IMG/VR virus record: IMGVR_UViG_2711768076_000018
Length of the DNA: 15,816 nt
From: a virus
Taxonomy: Duplodnaviria > Heunggongvirae > Uroviricota > Caudoviricetes
Direction: 5' to 3' (one strand)
Shown here: positions 1 through 14,175 of the stretch, piece by piece
Numbering within the stretch: the first letter of the stretch is position 1
Layout: every line of letters starts with the position of its first letter
The notes under the pieces: generated by a model
The model's database searches: none
Told to the model about the DNA's origin: nothing
What the model saw: only the letters and a program-made list of their open reading frames with translations
Program-made: the position numbers and the translations under genes

Positions 1-1236
1 ATGATTACACATTTCCGTCAAGCCATAGAAGAAACGCTACCCTGGCTCTCCTCTTTTGGCGCTGACCCAGCGGGTGGGATGACCCGTTTACTTTATTCGC
101 CGGAATGGCTGGAAACCCAGCAGCAATTTAAAAAAAGAATGGCAGCAAGCGGGCTGGAAACACGTTTCGATGAAGTGGGGAATTTATACGGTCGCCTGAG
201 TGGCACCGAATATCCACAGGAAGTGGTTCTGAGCGGTTCGCATATCGATACCGTGGTTAACGGCGGTAACCTCGACGGGCAATTCGGCGCGCTGGCGGCG
301 TGGCTGGCAATTGACTGGTTGAAAACGCAATACGGCGCGCCGTTACGTACGGTCGAAGTGGTGGCGATGGCAGAAGAAGAAGGCAGCCGCTTCCCGTATG
401 TCTTCTGGGGCAGTAAAAATATCTTTGGGCTGGCGAACCCTGACGACGTGCGGAATATCTGTGATGCCAAAGGAAATAGTTTTGTCGATGCGATGAAGGC
501 TTGCGGATTTACTCTGCCGAACGCCCCACTAACTCCGCGTCAGGATATTAAAGCCTTTGTTGAACTGCATATTGAACAGGGCTGTGTGCTGGAAAGTAAT
601 GGTCAATCAATTGGCGTGGTGAATGCAATTGTCGGGCAGCGTCGCTATACGGTGACGCTGAACGGCGAATCAAACCATGCAGGCACCACGCCGATGGGTT
701 ATCGTCGTGATACGGTTTACGCTTTCAGTCGCATTTGCCATCAGTCGATCGAAAAAGCGAAAAAGATGGGCGATCCGCTGGTTCTGACCTTTGGCAAAGT
801 AGAGCCGCGTCCGAATACGGTGAATGTGGTACCGGGTAAAACCACGTTCACCATTGATTGTCGTCATACCGACGCTGCCGTGCTGCGCGATTTCACCCAA
901 CAGTTAGAAAACGACATGCGGGCGATTTGCGATGAAATGGACATTGGTATTGATATCGATTTATGGATGGACGAAGAACCCGTGCCGATGAATAAGGAGC
1001 TGGTCGCCACCCTGACAGAATTGTGTGAAAGTGAAAAACTGAATTACCGGGTGATGCACAGTGGTGCCGGGCACGACGCGCAAATTTTCGCGCCTCGCGT
1101 ACCAACCTGCATGATTTTCATTCCCAGCATCAATGGGATCAGCCATAACCCGGCGGAACGCACCAATATTACCGACCTTGCCGAAGGGGTCAAAACGTTG
1201 GCACTCATGCTTTATCAACTTGCCTGGCAGAAATAA
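1..1236 (+). CDS. allC: allantoate amidohydrolase (M20 peptidase family)
   Basis: 411-aa ORF starting at window position 1 (MITHFRQAIEETLPWLSSFG ... LYQLAWQK). Recognised from memory as enterobacterial AllC, essentially full length. ATG start, TAA stop at 1234-1236. Confidence 0.9.
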   Translation: MITHFRQAIEETLPWLSSFGADPAGGMTRLLYSPEWLETQQQFKKRMAASGLETRFDEVGNLYGRLSGTEYPQEVVLSGSHIDTVVNGGNLDGQFGALAAWLAIDWLKTQYGAPLRTVEVVAMAEEEGSRFPYVFWGSKNIFGLANPDDVRNICDAKGNSFVDAMKACGFTLPNAPLTPRQDIKAFVELHIEQGCVLESNGQSIGVVNAIVGQRRYTVTLNGESNHAGTTPMGYRRDTVYAFSRICHQSIEKAKKMGDPLVLTFGKVEPRPNTVNVVPGKTTFTIDCRHTDAAVLRDFTQQLENDMRAICDEMDIGIDIDLWMDEEPVPMNKELVATLTELCESEKLNYRVMHSGAGHDAQIFAPRVPTCMIFIPSINGISHNPAERTNITDLAEGVKTLALMLYQLAWQK

Positions 1237-8444: not shown

Positions 8445-8693
8445 TTATTGTTTCACTGGCTCCCGCATTCTGCGTCTTATTTTCCACAAATATTCGATCA
8501 TCGCTTCCACCTGCTCACGGTTGGTTGCGAAAATTTCCCCGGTCAGTGAGCTACGCAGAAAATCATGATGATCCACAAAAAATAACGCATCGGAAGAAAG
8601 CAACCGACGATATTTTTTTGCTGTCGTGGTTTCCAGATCATCAAAACCATGAAGCTTTTTATGTTGCTGAACTTCTTCAAATGTCACTGGCAT
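8445..8693 (-). CDS. hypothetical protein (82 aa)
   Basis: ATG at 8693 overlaps the end of the ProQ/FinO gene by 10 nt. No family recognised. Confidence 0.5.
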   Translation of the reverse strand: MPVTFEEVQQHKKLHGFDDLETTTAKKYRRLLSSDALFFVDHHDFLRSSLTGEIFATNREQVEAMIEYLWKIRRRMREPVKQ

Positions 8694-9214
8694 GTATCCC
8701 CCTTTGCTGCCCGGCGCTGGCGCTTGTGCTTCTCATTCAGCACCATCAGCCGTGTTTCTGCCTCCTGCTGTTCCTGTGGTGTCACTTCCCCACATGGCTG
8801 GCCTTTCAGGTCGTAACGTGCGCCACCAGCTATCAGGGCGCGGTAATAGCGCGGAGACTGCGCATAGGATGCCAGCGTCGCACGTAATACCCCCGGCCCG
8901 AATGCCAGCCCCCTGACGGCGATATCCTGCATCAGGTCGTCGAATATCCCCACCTTAAGCGGCTTCGGTGCTTTATGGCTGAATAAGTCAGGCCACATCT
9001 CAGTGAGGCGGTTAACGCGTCGGCGGTTTTTGCGCTGCCTTTTGGTCATATGCTGCCACGGTGTCGCCCCTGTGGGCTTCTGCTGTGCGTTCTGATTGCC
9101 GGGTATCACTTTATGCGCCGATGTGGTTTTATCCTGCTCTTGCGCCGCCTGCGTCGTTTTCTGCGGCGTGCCGTAAATGCCTTTCGGCTTCCGGTTAATG
9201 GTCAGCGTTGTCAT
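8684..9214 (-). CDS. ProQ/FinO-domain RNA-binding protein
   Basis: 176 aa. The segment PLKVGIFDDLMQDI ... LRATLASYAQSPRYYRALIAGGARYDLKGQPCGEVTPQEQ matches the ProQ N-terminal FinO-like domain from memory (PLKIGIFQDL ... [22 protein letters not shown]). Basic low-complexity N-terminus. ATG 9214 with GGGGAAGG SD. Confidence 0.75.
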   Translation of the reverse strand: MTTLTINRKPKGIYGTPQKTTQAAQEQDKTTSAHKVIPGNQNAQQKPTGATPWQHMTKRQRKNRRRVNRLTEMWPDLFSHKAPKPLKVGIFDDLMQDIAVRGLAFGPGVLRATLASYAQSPRYYRALIAGGARYDLKGQPCGEVTPQEQQEAETRLMVLNEKHKRQRRAAKGDTCQ

Positions 9215-10205: not shown

Positions 10206-12020
10206 TTAATTTTTGCTGTCGTCATTTGTGACCGATGCACATGATGGCATCCAGTCTTCTGAATCCTCTGTCAGTGTCACATTTGAACGCAAACCGTGCT
10301 TCGTTTTCCGTTTTATATACTCCCTGCCATATTCCGCCATTGCCCCCGGCATATCTTTACCGAAGCGCGTCAGTGTTACAGGTTTACCGAATCCGTGTGC
10401 CCTCATATATGCCAGATAGGCGTGATAAAGATACCTGCGCGGACTGAACGGAATAATTTCGGCATTACCCACTAACAGACCATCACACATTACCGACGAC
10501 ATGAGATAGCCACAGAAGTCCACCAGCGAATCGCCCTCGCGTTTTATCACCAGAGCTTCTTCTGATTTCTGCTGCTCATACAGCAGGCGTTTAGCTTCGT
10601 CCTGGTCAGAAAAACGAGTAAGCAGATGGCGAATCACAACCGCCAGCTCTCCTTCTATTTTTTCTGCCAGCATGGGGTCGCGCTCGTTCTCCGGTACAAC
10701 CTCCGAAAAATTGAATATCACCCGACGACGTGAGATCCCCCCGCTGCGGTCACTGAATGACATGGCGTTATTGTTCACCGCCAGCACGACCGCCTGAATG
10801 CGTGTTGAGTAGGGGGCTTTATGCTTCGGGTCGATTGCCACCTTGTCACCGCCTGTAATAGCCTTAATTCCTGCGCCATCACCAGCGTAGCGGGTCATAT
10901 CCGGCATGATAATCAGCGAAAAGCCAACCACTAACGCGCGTTCCCTTGCATCTTCCAGCGCCTTCATGCTTGCCGATACTGTGTTGGCCTTACCCGCCAG
11001 CATGGTGCAAATCTCCGCCATCACGCTTTTACCACTTCCCCCTGGACCTGTTACCTCAATGAATAACTGCCAGTCGTACCGGTTCGCCAGCACCATGAAT
11101 AATGCAGCCAGCACGCGATCCGTCTTGCGGTCATTCTCTGCCACCGAGCAGCGTAACCACTTCCAGAAATTCGGCGCATGTGTTGCCAGCGTTTCCCCCT
11201 CTGCTGGTGGGCTGAAAGGTAATTCACTGGCAATTAACAACCAGTCGTTTTTGTTATGCTCCCGAAAATTACCTGTTCTGGTATCAAATACCCCGTTACT
11301 GAATCCAATCAGGTTACGGGCTGTATTCCCCATTACAGGCAAACTTAACTTCATGGTATCGACCGCCGATTTAATGGCGTTCTGCGAATAGCTGATCTCC
11401 GCATCAATGAAAATCTGCGCCATAGCACGCTGTAACTCTTTATCCTGAATCGGCTCCCATACAACGCCGTTGTAATGGTGAACAGTGTCAGAGTCGGCAT
11501 GAATCGCCAGTTCACCGCCATAATGTGCCAGGAGAACTTCGCCGCGCTGGCTTGCTCCCATCTGGTTAAGCGCCAGTGGTGCGGCGCTGTCTTCTGTTTT
11601 TTTCTTAACAGGAAGCTGAATCACCAGACCATCAGAAAGATTCTGGCGCTCACGGGCCAGATATTCGCGCCAGTTCTGCACCTCCTGGCCGTGCATACCC
11701 TCAGGATAAAAATTTGCATCCTGTACGCCTGCCGCCGCCAGCTTCTGACCAATCGCCTTTATCATTACTGGCGCAAGATATCCGGCCCTGAATATGCGCA
11801 CGGATTTTCTGCCTTCCGGCACAATTTGCAGCTTATCCAGTTCGGATAACTGCTGCTCCCCAAGCCACACAGGAGGCTCATTATCTCCGGCCATACGCGC
11901 GTCATGTTCCTGCCATTGTTTTGCGTGTGACCAGGCATCACTACCCGCAAAAATAATGACTTCTGTTTCTTTGTGTTTTATGCCGCGTGACTGCTGTTTT
12001 ACGTTCGGTGCCAGTTTCAT
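10206..12020 (-). CDS. primase/helicase replication initiator (P4-alpha-like, Walker A NTPase C-terminal domain)
   Basis: 604 aa with Walker A GPGGSGKS in the C-terminal half, of a size typical for satellite or plasmid primase-helicases. ATG 12020 overlaps the upstream stop (ATGA). Confidence 0.85.
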   Translation of the reverse strand: MKLAPNVKQQSRGIKHKETEVIIFAGSDAWSHAKQWQEHDARMAGDNEPPVWLGEQQLSELDKLQIVPEGRKSVRIFRAGYLAPVMIKAIGQKLAAAGVQDANFYPEGMHGQEVQNWREYLARERQNLSDGLVIQLPVKKKTEDSAAPLALNQMGASQRGEVLLAHYGGELAIHADSDTVHHYNGVVWEPIQDKELQRAMAQIFIDAEISYSQNAIKSAVDTMKLSLPVMGNTARNLIGFSNGVFDTRTGNFREHNKNDWLLIASELPFSPPAEGETLATHAPNFWKWLRCSVAENDRKTDRVLAALFMVLANRYDWQLFIEVTGPGGSGKSVMAEICTMLAGKANTVSASMKALEDARERALVVGFSLIIMPDMTRYAGDGAGIKAITGGDKVAIDPKHKAPYSTRIQAVVLAVNNNAMSFSDRSGGISRRRVIFNFSEVVPENERDPMLAEKIEGELAVVIRHLLTRFSDQDEAKRLLYEQQKSEEALVIKREGDSLVDFCGYLMSSVMCDGLLVGNAEIIPFSPRRYLYHAYLAYMRAHGFGKPVTLTRFGKDMPGAMAEYGREYIKRKTKHGLRSNVTLTEDSEDWMPSCASVTNDDSKN

Positions 12021-12316
12021 TTTTTACCCCTGAATCCGTTAATCATGGTTTTCAGCTTCTGGATGTTTGCCCGTGCCCTGGCGTTGCTGGTGGACACGTT
12101 ATGCGGCGCGGTCTGTACCAGAGAAAAATCACGCCGGAACTGATAAACAGGCATCACGCAATCATATTCGTAACCTTCACGGCGGTAGGTTACGCGCCGT
12201 TCTTCCACGCCCTTAATCATTACCGTGCCGCCGTACTGGTCGCGGTAAATATCGCCGCGCGTAAATTTAGGGTGAGTGTTGCCACTGGCAGTTAAGCCAG
12301 AATATTTAAGTTTCAT
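12017..12316 (-). CDS. hypothetical protein (99 aa)
   Basis: ATG 12316; tightly packed in the operon immediately upstream of the primase. Confidence 0.5.
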   Translation of the reverse strand: MKLKYSGLTASGNTHPKFTRGDIYRDQYGGTVMIKGVEERRVTYRREGYEYDCVMPVYQFRRDFSLVQTAPHNVSTSNARARANIQKLKTMINGFRGKK

Positions 12317-12321
12317 TATTT

Positions 12322-12555
12322 TTATTCTCCGGTGTGCTGTTCTTTATATCTGTCGTGCAATAGATCTATTTCTTGCAGTTCCATTATTACAGGCTCAAGA
12401 AGCGTTATTAATGCCGTGGCAATTCTTGATTTTTGTTTGTCGCGTTCATTGTCGCCAAGTGTTTCAAGCCATATGCGCAATATTTCCAGCATGTTTTCAC
12501 TGTGAGAAAGTGCAAGAAATGCGCGGTCTATTGTTTCGTGGTAAATATCACGCAT
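12322..12555 (-). CDS. hypothetical protein (77 aa)
   Basis: ATG 12555 overlaps the upstream stop by 8 nt. Confidence 0.5.
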   Translation of the reverse strand: MRDIYHETIDRAFLALSHSENMLEILRIWLETLGDNERDKQKSRIATALITLLEPVIMELQEIDLLHDRYKEQHTGE

Positions 12556-13012
12556 GGCTTACATCCTCAGGAAATTTTCTTCTATAACGCGCCTCTGCCA
12601 CATATTCCGCATAATCGGCGGCGATATTCAGTACATCAAGCCCCGTTGATTTATATTCTCTCGTGGAAAGTAAGAAAAAAGCCGCTCTAATAAGCTCTGG
12701 CATTGACGAAAGCGCATCAGCCGCATCATCAGGAACGCCGGAAAATTCCTGTTTCAGGGAATTAAAACGATCATCACGCATAACCCCCCCATTTTCACAA
12801 TCAGCAATCAGGATGGCTTTAGCCTCATTCAGCGCCATATCCGCACTAAGTTGCATAACAGCCAGTGAGTGAGGAACGAAAGCCCCGGCATATTCTGTTT
12901 CGCTGGTGGCGCGCTTATGCGCCTTGTCTGCGATAACAGAAATATCAATCAGCGCGTGCATCAGCGTTTTGATGGCTTCGGCGGCTGCGTCCGGACGGGT
13001 GTTATTGCACAT
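12548..13012 (-). CDS. hypothetical protein (154 aa)
   Basis: ATG 13012 overlaps the upstream stop by 11 nt. Confidence 0.5.
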   Translation of the reverse strand: MCNNTRPDAAAEAIKTLMHALIDISVIADKAHKRATSETEYAGAFVPHSLAVMQLSADMALNEAKAILIADCENGGVMRDDRFNSLKQEFSGVPDDAADALSSMPELIRAAFFLLSTREYKSTGLDVLNIAADYAEYVAEARYRRKFPEDVSHA

Positions 13013-13208
13013 GGCGTACCCCCTGACGAATACGGGCAGCGAATACCATCACGCAGCCATCAGGAGATTGCTGACGCGCTTCCTGTTCGCTGGTGGCCTC
13101 AATGGTAATCACGCGCGGTTGTGCCGTGCTCAGGGCGATAAAACGCCAGATGTATTTATTCAGGTTGTACGAGTCCCGCCCTTGCGGGTGTCTGGTATAA
13201 TTTCTCAT
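13002..13208 (-). CDS. hypothetical small protein (68 aa), first gene of the leftward replication operon
   Basis: ATG 13208 with GAGG SD. This is the in-frame C-terminal part of a 374-aa ORF-track call that is itself implausible. Confidence 0.4.
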   Translation of the reverse strand: MRNYTRHPQGRDSYNLNKYIWRFIALSTAQPRVITIEATSEQEARQQSPDGCVMVFAARIRQGVRHVQ

Positions 13209-13407
13209 AGCTGCCTCGATACTTCTGCTATCGTTGGTGGTTAGAAGCCCGTTGGTGTTGGTAGCACCTGCGGGCTTTGTCTTTTCATCGATTACCTTAA
13301 TAAAGGTGTCAGCCACTATACTAGTGACAGGTGTCAGCCACGTCAATAGTGTTTTTCTATTTTCTTGTGTGTATACTGTCAGCCACCTAATAACAAGGAA
13401 ATCAGAT
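13209..13407. promoter_or_regulatory. divergent promoter/operator region with three TGTCAGCCAC repeats
   Basis: TGTCAGCCAC at 13307-13316, 13332-13341 and 13377-13386. The third copy overlaps a TATACT -10-like hexamer upstream of the plus-strand gene at 13408. On the minus strand the repeats read GTGGCTGACA and contain -35-like TGACA. Confidence 0.45.
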
Positions 13408-13587
13408 ATGGCAACGAAAGCAGTTAATGGAAAATCCAAAAAACTTGAGGCACGAGTACCCCATGCAATAGCTGACGCTGTAGAAAATTTAAAGGAAGAA
13501 GGCGAAAGCACTGGGCAATTTATCGTTTCGGCGCTTGAAGGTGAGATCAAACGCCGCCAGCGCCGAAAGGCCAAAGAGCAGGAATAA
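13408..13587 (+). CDS. small ribbon-helix-helix-like DNA-binding protein (59 aa), candidate regulator
   Basis: ATG 13408 with AAGGAA SD. The predicted strand-helix-helix pattern (KLEARVPHAIADAVENLKEEGESTGQFIVSALEGEI) and basic C-tail fit an RHH protein. It is one of only two plus-strand genes in the element and diverges from the replication operon. Confidence 0.55.
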   Translation: MATKAVNGKSKKLEARVPHAIADAVENLKEEGESTGQFIVSALEGEIKRRQRRKAKEQE

Positions 13588-13644
13588 CCATCACCAGCGC
13601 CGTGGTGTAAGGTATTACGGCGCATTGCTATGCAGGACAACACA

Positions 13645-13818
13645 ATGACCGATAAAGAATTGACCAAAACATTATCACCGACACGGAAAAGACGACGCAG
13701 AAAGATAGAGCATGAATCAGAAAGATTCGCGCCATGTGCTTTTGCCCTTGAGCAATTCCTTAAAGAGTACAGGGAAAAGCGCTCATTGCAGGTATGGCAA
13801 CGAACTGAACCAGACTGA
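13645..13818 (+). CDS. hypothetical small basic protein (57 aa)
   Basis: ATG 13645 preceded by AGGA at 7-nt spacing. Followed by a plus-strand terminator at 13885-13913. Confidence 0.35.
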   Translation: MTDKELTKTLSPTRKRRRRKIEHESERFAPCAFALEQFLKEYREKRSLQVWQRTEPD

Positions 13819-13884
13819 TTGCATTGCCCACCAGCCGCAAATGTGGCATTGTTGGTGATGCTTTTGTTTTCCCTTGTTCCCACT

Positions 13885-13913
13885 GGCGACCCTTTTGCGG
13901 TCGCCTTTGTTTT
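13885..13913 (+). terminator. intrinsic terminator for the plus-strand small-gene unit
   Basis: GGCGACC-cttttgc-GGTCGCC hairpin followed by TTTGTTTTGCTT. Confidence 0.65.
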
Positions 13914-13951
13914 GCTTGTTATCCGGCAATAGTGGCGCTTCACCACACGGT

Positions 13952-14038
13952 TGATATAATTCCCCTGCACTGATCCATTTTTTTCGCAGCAGGTTAATTG
14001 TTCAGAAAGGCGGTTCCTTATCGGGGCCGCTTTTTTTA
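13952..14038 (+). ncRNA. candidate small RNA (about 70 nt) from an extended -10 promoter to an intrinsic terminator
   Basis: TGaTATAAT at 13952-13960 is a consensus -10 with extended TG motif; the -35 is poor. Terminator hairpin GCGGTTCC-ttatc-GGGGCCGC plus T7 lies at 14010-14037. No ORF with an RBS lies between. Confidence 0.3.
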
Positions 14039-14150
14039 TGCCTGAAAATACCCGATAACATGGCTTTTTAGTTTCACCAGGACGAACGAAGCCCCGCCCC
14101 TGTTCGGGCGTATATCCAGTATTCATGGTTAGATCTCTGTGTTAGTGGAT

Positions 14151-14175
14151 GGCTGGCGGCGGTGCGCCGCCAGCC
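14151..14175 (-). other. perfect 11-bp GC-rich hairpin 3 nt downstream of the alpA stop
   Basis: GGCTGGCGGCG-gtg-CGCCGCCAGCC with no U-tract on either strand. Possibly a transcript-stabilising or Rho-related structure. Confidence 0.4.

Follow-up and report, generated by a model that had tools for sequence, protein, structure and literature searches.

What do the small genes between the switch region and the primase of a phage satellite do, and what holds such an operon shut? The question is raised by a 15,816-nt stretch of DNA from a tailed-phage-class virus record (IMG/VR record IMGVR_UViG_2711768076_000018; the whole stretch is called the window below), in which four small open reading frames (ORFs) of 68, 154, 77 and 99 aa, here ORF1 to ORF4, precede a primase gene. 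After analyzing the window and its related loci computationally, we propose, with a probability of roughly 0.6, that this segment forms the 5′ portion of an early/replication operon belonging to a capsid-forming phage-inducible chromosomal island (cf-PICI), built as a fixed frame with a swappable middle and gated at its first cistron. The genes and their families, the selection they are under, the modular layout, and the structure and strand preference of a predicted RNA at the entrance of the operon are shown by the analysis itself.

The first-pass annotation had described the four ORFs as the tightly overlapping head of a satellite replication operon. Their coordinates and lengths were confirmed, all four lie on the minus strand, and their place at the head of such an operon was borne out by the cf-PICI gene set of the island:

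13002..13208, minus strand: ORF1, 68 aa, the Icd-like first cistron; basic (pI 10.4), with a GAGG Shine-Dalgarno sequence 7 nt upstream.
12548..13012, minus strand: ORF2, 154 aa; acidic (pI 4.9), predicted to be all-helical.
12322..12555, minus strand: ORF3, 77 aa; acidic (pI 5.0), helical, a member of the variable cassette.
12017..12316, minus strand: ORF4, 99 aa, a DUF4222 protein; basic (pI 10.2), its stop overlapping the primase start (ATGA).
10206..12020, minus strand: primase/helicase, 604 aa, downstream of the four ORFs (D5_N, DUF5906 and Pox_D5 in Pfam).

A Shine-Dalgarno-like G-rich stretch lies 7-11 nt 5′ of every start. The claimed overlap of stops and starts was found at the 68/154 junction (11 nt), the 154/77 junction (8 nt, ATGCGTGA) and the 99/primase junction (4 nt, ATGA), but not at the 77/99 junction, where a 5-nt gap (TAAAAATAATG) separates the two genes. 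Among related loci, the ratio of nonsynonymous to synonymous substitution rates (dN/dS) was 0.23 for the 68-aa, 0.23 for the 154-aa, 0.26 for the 77-aa and 0.38 for the 99-aa frame (primase, 0.11), and each of the four had an end-to-end PHROG family match. As judged from these comparisons, all four ORFs are real genes under purifying selection. That some of them are chance reading frames might be suspected from their shortness and from the interruption of the 154-aa frame in many strains. However, dN/dS is well below 1 for all four, the PHROG matches are full length, hundreds of conserved database clusters exist, and the interruption of the 154-aa frame sits exactly at the boundary of two independently conserved genes; we attach next to no probability to this idea. 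A 374-aa ORF in the mechanical list (13002..14126, minus strand) was rejected as a gene because conservation and annotation begin at 13208. This frame is an open run through the leader, antisense to ylcI, and the Icd-like start in RefSeq is the ATG at 13208. The open upstream frame of 374 codons can yield over-long annotations of an "Icd-like protein with N-terminal extension" in other genomes.

None of the four ORFs had been thought to belong to a recognizable family, which held for ORF2 and ORF3 but not for ORF1 and ORF4. ORF1 matched the NCBIfam family Icd-like (NF033153) at 70.3 bits (cut-off 25; E = 1e-19), and its residues 18-66 aligned with residues 11-56 of phage P1 Icd at 35% identity (E = 6e-8). 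In P1, Icd binds FtsZ and thereby prevents the Z-ring from forming; residues 12-51 suffice for this, and over-expression kills (2025 study, PMC11897509). The stretch of P1 Icd aligned with ORF1 spans this FtsZ-binding core. By sequence comparison, ORF1 is an Icd-family protein homologous to the FtsZ-binding core of P1 Icd, and after satellite induction it would most likely arrest host cell division and be toxic. The PHROG label "transcriptional repressor" carried by the ORF1 family is not to be relied on; it probably goes back to an old P4 "cI gene product" annotation. Scans with the Icd-like protein yielded 5 loci in genome contigs and 80 in viral contigs; the 80 are close relatives, mostly E. 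coli-like, and their diversity is limited.

At the entrance of this first cistron, a structured element is predicted on the opposite strand:

13208..13288, plus strand: predicted cis-antisense RNA of ~80 nt, opposite the Icd-like 5′ untranslated region (5′UTR) and Shine-Dalgarno sequence.
13209-13244, plus strand: stem-loop 1 of this RNA, from fold prediction.
13244-13278, plus strand: GC-rich terminator hairpin, followed by UUUGUCUUUUC.
13193..13201, plus strand: extended −10 promoter-like element TGGTATAAT, read from the sequence, inside Icd-like codons 3-6.

The plus-strand RNA of positions 13208-13290 had a fold energy of −35.9 kcal/mol (z = −5.07). The plus strand was more stable than the sense strand in 43 of 43 unique variants (mean −36.6 versus −22.2 kcal/mol), and it folds better because 211 of its 1208 pairs are G·U, compared with 13 of 895 on the sense strand. 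Paired cells amounted to 98.4%, and compensatory changes occurred at 8 pairs, a number reached by 0 of 500 shuffles (slid controls, 1-2). These compensatory pairs are located in the second hairpin, for which one variant has an entirely different stem sequence. A U-rich tract lies 3′ of the hairpin on the plus strand only, and the extended −10 sits 7 nt before the predicted 5′ end of the RNA. Although the codons vary, 80 of 82 related loci retain the form TGgTAT(A/G)AT, and TATGCT or TATGAT stands at the equivalent place in four distant loci with differing N-terminal peptides.

A covariance model built from 25 variants (R1; 24 of the 80 viral-contig loci supplied training rows) scored 82.7 bits in the window and matched 79 of the 80 loci in viral contigs that encode close relatives of the Icd-like protein, the single miss having no upstream sequence. 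It was also found at the same position and strand in loci from E. ruysiae, Shigella flexneri, Klebsiella pneumoniae and Tenebrionibacter intestinalis (36-51 bits). In other E. coli genomes, matches to the Icd-like block repeatedly break off near 13284-13286, at the 3′ end of the RNA. No Rfam family reached its gathering score in the window. The best trace was SymR (RF01809), matched over its full length at the same coordinates with 23.7 bits against a gathering score of 61 (E = 0.097); membership in SymR was rejected on this score, and the match was treated as a resemblance in layout. We predict that the structured RNA belongs to the plus strand, is antisense to the operon and was previously uncatalogued. 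By pairing with the Icd Shine-Dalgarno region, it would repress entry into the operon.

Instead, the conserved hairpins might function in the leader of the sense strand, where they would form an attenuator or be processed into a C4/CI-like RNA, with no antisense RNA being made. Phages P1 and P4 do process sense-strand RNAs from the leader at this position, and the hairpins also form in the sense strand of the window, more weakly. However, each of the 43 variants folds less stably as the sense strand, by 14 kcal/mol, because ~17% of the pairs on the other strand are G·U. The U-rich tract follows the hairpin only on the plus strand, no match to C4, isrK or c4-a1b1 was obtained even at E ≤ 10, and the leader is too short for an RNA plus its targets. 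A sense-strand role is improbable in our view, and the antisense RNA remains the preferred reading of the hairpins.

A close parallel to such an entrance is found in P1, whose immI operon opens with icd. There, the stop of icd overlaps the start of ant1, and the icd ribosome-binding site is blocked by C4 RNA. The window resembles immI in its Icd-family first cistron, in the stop overlapping the next start and in a predicted antisense RNA aimed at the ribosome-binding site of this cistron. Unlike immI, the window has no C4 RNA, and small ORFs and a primase lie downstream where P1 has an antirepressor. The stop/start overlaps of 11, 8 and 4 nt and the 5-nt gap would couple the translation of successive genes, in the way that icd and ant are coupled in P1. 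The left operon of P4 is similar in order, with an AlpA/Vis gene, a regulatory RNA, an Icd-like region, small overlapping ORFs and a P4-type primase. The window primase is 49% identical to the C-terminal part of P4 alpha, the AlpA proteins are 46% identical, and the kil/eta region of P4-type prophages is annotated as Icd-like. P4 differs in having the C4-family CI RNA, and the window island in having its own capsid and packaging genes. Neither tblastn nor hhalign detected a credible relationship between the four ORFs and the P4 proteins epsilon, ORF151 and Cnr or the P4 cI ORF (hhalign probabilities against the first three were all below 2%), and P4 has no detectable homologue of the 68-aa protein.

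The C4-family RNA (RF01695) is absent from the window, both at the gathering score and at E ≤ 10. In the same Rfam scan, a sense-strand C4-family RNA was found 5′ of icd in P1, P4 (CI RNA) and an E. albertii locus (L005). This last locus is the sole Icd-like locus fetched with upstream sequence in which R1 finds nothing, and P4 is also without the new RNA. Among the loci examined, Icd-like genes have a C4-type RNA or the new RNA, never both. C4/CI and the new RNA seem to stand in for each other in guarding this kind of first cistron, and this either-or guarding points to a general need to keep that cistron shut.

A second parallel concerns the form of the RNA. In the FinP/FinO/traJ system, a ~80-nt two-hairpin antisense RNA covers the 5′UTR, and a FinO-domain chaperone protects this RNA and promotes pairing. 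The window shares with FinP/traJ and SymR/SymE the layout of a ~80-nt two-stem-loop RNA, here a predicted one, opposite the 5′UTR and ribosome-binding site, with a putative promoter in or beside the coding start of the target. As with FinP/FinO, the element itself also encodes a FinO-domain chaperone:

8684..9214, minus strand: ProQ/FinO-family RNA chaperone gene (PF04352, E = 1.2e-23; ProQ/FINO in RefSeq).

The window RNA differs from FinP and SymR in being a member of neither family (Rfam gave no FinP match) and in its target, which is Icd-like, not traJ or symE. The analogy suggests that the ProQ/FinO protein is possibly a candidate partner of the antisense RNA; no role for a ProQ/FinO protein was found in the papers on PICIs that we searched. 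At the RNA level, operon entry would be gated by the antisense RNA in place of the C4/CI RNAs of P1 and P4, possibly with the help of ProQ/FinO.

This layout also raises another option, namely, that the Icd-like protein and the antisense RNA form a type I toxin-antitoxin pair that stabilizes the island in the chromosome and does not serve the lytic cycle. A small basic protein of a toxic family, a structured antisense RNA over the ribosome-binding site and the SymE/SymR-like arrangement with its full-length, sub-threshold SymR match at the same coordinates would all fit such a pair. We nevertheless regard it as unlikely: the toxin heads a long operon of coupled genes and is no stand-alone pair, its promoter has operator-like repeats, and the P1/P4 immunity RNAs at the same position control the whole operon.

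Under the proposal of a gated operon, a second level of control might be provided by the promoter region further upstream, which holds the following features:

13318..13346, minus strand: sigma-70-like operon promoter (TTGACG, 17-nt spacer, TAGTAT), from a consensus scan.
13307-13316, 13332-13341 and 13377-13386, no strand assigned: three exact TGTCAGCCAC direct repeats, candidate operators over divergent promoters.
13408..13587, plus strand: divergent YlcI/YnfO-family gene, 59 aa (NF041551, E = 4e-17), a candidate regulator.

Two of the three repeats overlap the operon promoter, and the third lies where the divergent transcript begins. Conservation of the Icd-like/leader block extends to ~13286, and the promoter region upstream of it is mosaic between loci; other loci carry different repeat or palindrome types there, resembling immunity-specific operators. 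A YlcI/YnfO gene was the divergent neighbour in 35 of the 48 related loci where one could be called, and we read its product as a putative ribbon-helix-helix-like protein. Entry into the operon would be gated at the promoter level by the three direct repeats, which flank the promoter beside the divergent YlcI/YnfO gene. A 16-nt stretch with the start of the YlcI/YnfO gene (CAGATATGGCAACGAA, 13403-13418) recurs with 94% identity at 13789-13804, near the end of the next small plus-strand ORF.

Downstream of the first cistron, the frame from icd to the replicase is regarded as fixed and its middle as swappable because ORF1 and ORF4 are constant and the middle ORFs are exchanged in related loci. 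The layout of Icd-like gene, variable cassette, DUF4222 gene and replicase, of either type, was found in 80+ loci. Between the Icd-like and DUF4222 genes, gene content varies, and unrelated small ORF families replace ORF2 and/or ORF3 elsewhere. The suggestion that these ORFs hold lineage-specific biology was therefore supported for the middle cassette but not for ORF1 and ORF4, which form the constant frame of a module found in many enterobacterial satellites. ORF2 is itself composite:

12782..13012 and 12548..12781, minus strand: N-half and C-half of ORF2, two ancestral ~77-aa ORFs fused in frame.
12784..12790, minus strand: homopolymer tract at the N-half/C-half junction, G7 on the coding strand and C7 on the plus strand.

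ORF2 matched phrog_2512 over its full length, phrog_5146 with its N-half and phrog_24341 with its C-half, and homologues of either half also occur as proteins of their own (38-65% identity). When 1.8 billion representatives were searched exhaustively, just 52 clusters of ORF2 relatives were returned, many of which are separate ~75-84-aa proteins matching residues 1-77 or 78-154. The length of the tract sets the form of ORF2 in related loci: G7 alleles are fused (n = 9), G8 (n = 14) and G9 (n = 5) alleles are split, and a single G10 allele is fused again, with 155 aa. In the split G8 and G9 alleles, the C-half starts with an ATG that overlaps the N-half stop, and the N-half of G8 alleles ends in GGGYA*. 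ORF2 is also split in strain E300010, whose locus is the closest relative of the window (99.9% identical). On these alignments, ORF2 is a poly-G-dependent fusion allele of two ancestral small genes; the G7-G10 variation may be slippage-driven or, in part, sequencing error. The two halves co-occur even with another gene in between, and an AlphaFold2 (AF2) model of ORF2 packs both into one helical bundle, at low confidence (mean predicted local distance difference test score, 59.5). The N-half and C-half may work as a pair. That they are duplicates of each other was considered and rejected. The N-half was also considered as a relative of P4 epsilon (best tblastn E = 0.066) and dropped when its probability fell to 1.7% by hhalign profile.

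ORF3 matched phrog_2196 (E = 8e-42) and has 528 near-identical database clusters, every one of them named hypothetical or prophage protein. Neither ORF2 nor ORF3 had a match in Pfam, NCBIfam, PADLOC or the Protein Data Bank (PDB). Homology searches, as proposed in the first-pass annotation, assigned the Icd-like and DUF4222 families and gave nothing credible against P4 left-operon proteins or the PDB, where searches by sequence and by profile with all four proteins returned no match below E = 0.3. The acidic helical cassette proteins would most likely bind host, helper or satellite proteins.

The other constant member, ORF4, matched DUF4222 (PF13973) at 85.7 bits (cut-off 27), covering the full 53-residue domain, and all of its homologues carry the same precomputed Pfam domain. 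Its predicted fold is a Tudor/SH3-like beta-barrel followed by a C-terminal basic helix, and fold searches returned generic Tudor/KOW/SH3-like barrels, uncharacterised phage proteins or DUF1653. The AF2 models were built from shallower alignments. An N-terminal SG(L/F)TASG motif is present in all DUF4222 variants, down to 34% identity; the motif is not part of the Pfam domain, and the AF2 model shows it as disordered. In related loci, DUF4222 is always directly 5′ of a replicase, which may be of the primase family, of the 468-471-aa RepA-helicase type, or a DUF927 or DUF5906 protein. We suggest a role as a replicase accessory or adaptor because this constant position is the sole functional clue; translationally coupled to the replicase, the DUF4222 protein would most likely serve it in this way.

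All four ORFs might alternatively be routine replication accessory proteins, acting in origin binding, helicase loading or copy-number control, like Cnr of P4. Their position directly before the primase would agree with this, as would the invariable coupling of DUF4222 to a replicase, its basic character and its nucleic-acid/protein-binding fold class. For the set as a whole, we consider such a role distinctly unlikely, as ORF1 is homologous to Icd and is not a replication protein, unrelated families take the place of the middle ORFs while the replicase stays the same, and no homology to P4 Cnr, epsilon or ORF151 was found; profile comparison by hhalign showed that ORF4 is not homologous to Cnr. 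For DUF4222 alone, a replication-accessory role is plausible, at somewhat less than even odds.

An anti-phage function was among the roles first suggested for these ORFs. In E. coli ECOR61, the phage accessory protein orf24 triggers growth arrest or death, and suppressor transposon insertions fell in an Icd-like gene and in the pair of overlapping small ORFs that immediately follows it (Silas et al., bioRxiv 10.1101/2023.04.06.535777). Six linked genes including the primase were needed to rebuild the effect, which was described as muted, and removal of the Icd-like gene abolished it (bioRxiv 10.1101/2023.04.06.535777). The window has the layout of the ECOR61 prophage locus, in which an Icd-like gene heads overlapping small ORFs and a primase follows, and that locus provides the only experimental phenotype known for this operon type. 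The two differ in their middle ORFs, which by length are of 61 and 63 aa in ECOR61 and of 154 and 77 aa in the window. The ECOR61 ORFs are 186 and 192 nt long, and the overlap with icd is 8 nt; by lengths only, they match the cassette c12+c22 of related locus L031, whose six genes are icd, c12, c22, an ORF of the 77-aa family, DUF4222 and primase. Because the ECOR61 locus is of the same operon type and is needed for phage-triggered cell death, an anti-phage role is a fair candidate for this operon type by analogy.

It is a further step to suppose that the block is mainly an anti-phage abortive-infection module, in which the small proteins sense a phage product and release the Icd-like effector. 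The results of Silas et al. and the length match of the L031 cassette speak for such a module, and variation of the cassette is expected for arms-race genes. However, the window cassette, with its N/C-half fusion, differs from the one matched to ECOR61, that match is by lengths only, no PADLOC model matched the four ORFs or their neighbours at E ≤ 0.1, and the ECOR61 effect was muted when reconstituted. We hold this view as a tentative minority option that can coexist with the gated-operon proposal. Helper interference or derepression sensing by the small ORFs, which had also been suggested, stays conjecture given the lack of a PADLOC match and of homology to P4 epsilon, the protein that derepresses the helper, ORF151 or Cnr.

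The operon belongs to an island whose nature is clear from its gene content. A chromosomal segment of E. coli AST19 is 99.4% identical to the whole 15.8-kb window. According to the RefSeq annotation of AST19, the island is inserted between allC (window 1..1236) and allE, and the minus strand reads, in order, integrase, AlpA-family regulator, Icd-like protein, two hypothetical proteins, DUF4222 protein, primase, hypothetical protein, SSB, ProQ/FinO, major capsid, prohead protease, portal, head-tail connector, HNH, TerS and TerL. The gene set of a capsid-forming PICI is thus present, with int, alpA and primase/rep accompanied by capsid, protease, portal, connector, TerS and TerL; the size of ~15 kb at a chromosomal att site also corresponds to a cf-PICI, and the Pfam matches agree. 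On gene content, the window is a capsid-forming PICI in E. coli. Of 5426 complete E. coli genomes, 200 contained the 1.55-kb four-ORF block at ≥80% coverage and 1747 contained part of it; the four ORFs carry annotation in ~200 complete E. coli genomes.

Some further observations concern the island and its relatives. In strain E300010 (L001 6587-7822), the allC gene beside the insertion site is a pseudogene with an internal stop. The E300010 island has this replication module, yet it appears truncated: beyond the ProQ/FinO gene, its annotation lists just a longer capsid gene and a single hypothetical gene. Directly 3′ of the alpA stop, the window has a perfect 11-bp GC-rich inverted repeat (GGCTGGCGGCG / CGCCGCCAGCC, window 14151-14175), after which ~330 nt are without a conserved gene; in E300010, a truncated pseudogene is annotated there. 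The Rfam int-alpA RNA motif (RF02996) occurs between int and alpA in two related loci (L004 617-685 and L008 764-829) and was not detected in the window at the gathering score.

EcCIEDL933 and EcCICFT073 resemble the window in carrying int, alpA, primase/rep and a full capsid-packaging module, and their small ORFs between alpA and rep are drawn as hypothetical. The cf-PICI EcCIEDL933 paper and the founding PICI paper characterised int, alpA, pri/rep and the packaging genes. The window differs from what these papers contain, as they give no description of Icd-like or DUF4222 proteins, of the repeats, of the YlcI/YnfO gene or of any RNA.

For the operon as we propose it, division inhibition, expression of and repression by the RNA, and the roles of DUF4222 and of the cassette are what we infer, and several points weigh against the proposal. 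The identity to P1 Icd is just 35% over 49 residues, and the FtsZ interaction is a prediction. Likewise, the antisense RNA is a predicted one, with a predicted start site and a predicted promoter: stem-loop 1 is nearly invariant and is supported by its G·U pairs only, the −10 lies within coding sequence and its conservation could stem from the protein, and the U-tract 3′ of the terminator hairpin is interrupted in many variants. The DUF4222-replicase link comes from gene order alone, and the fold class is generic. The AF2 confidence for ORF2 is low, and its fold matches are generic helical bundles. Finally, in the published cf-PICI/PICI papers, the activator is AlpA, and none of these elements appears.

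The founding PICI paper noted that the existence of a repressor was unclear and called the difference from Gram-positive islands a mystery. We speculate, as an outside chance, that the Icd-like protein, the antisense RNA, ProQ/FinO, YlcI/YnfO and the repeats make up the missing "immunity" switch of Gram-negative PICIs, replacing C4/CI, and that the acidic ORFs are sensors of phage proteins that would make the division inhibitor an abortive-infection effector. For the four ORFs themselves, the gain is smaller, as two of them (ORF1 and ORF4) receive a family and a likely role; more of the novel content adjoins them, in the predicted antisense RNA, the FinO-domain gene and the operator-like repeats. 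With these, the locus offers parts that bear on how Gram-negative PICIs stay silent.

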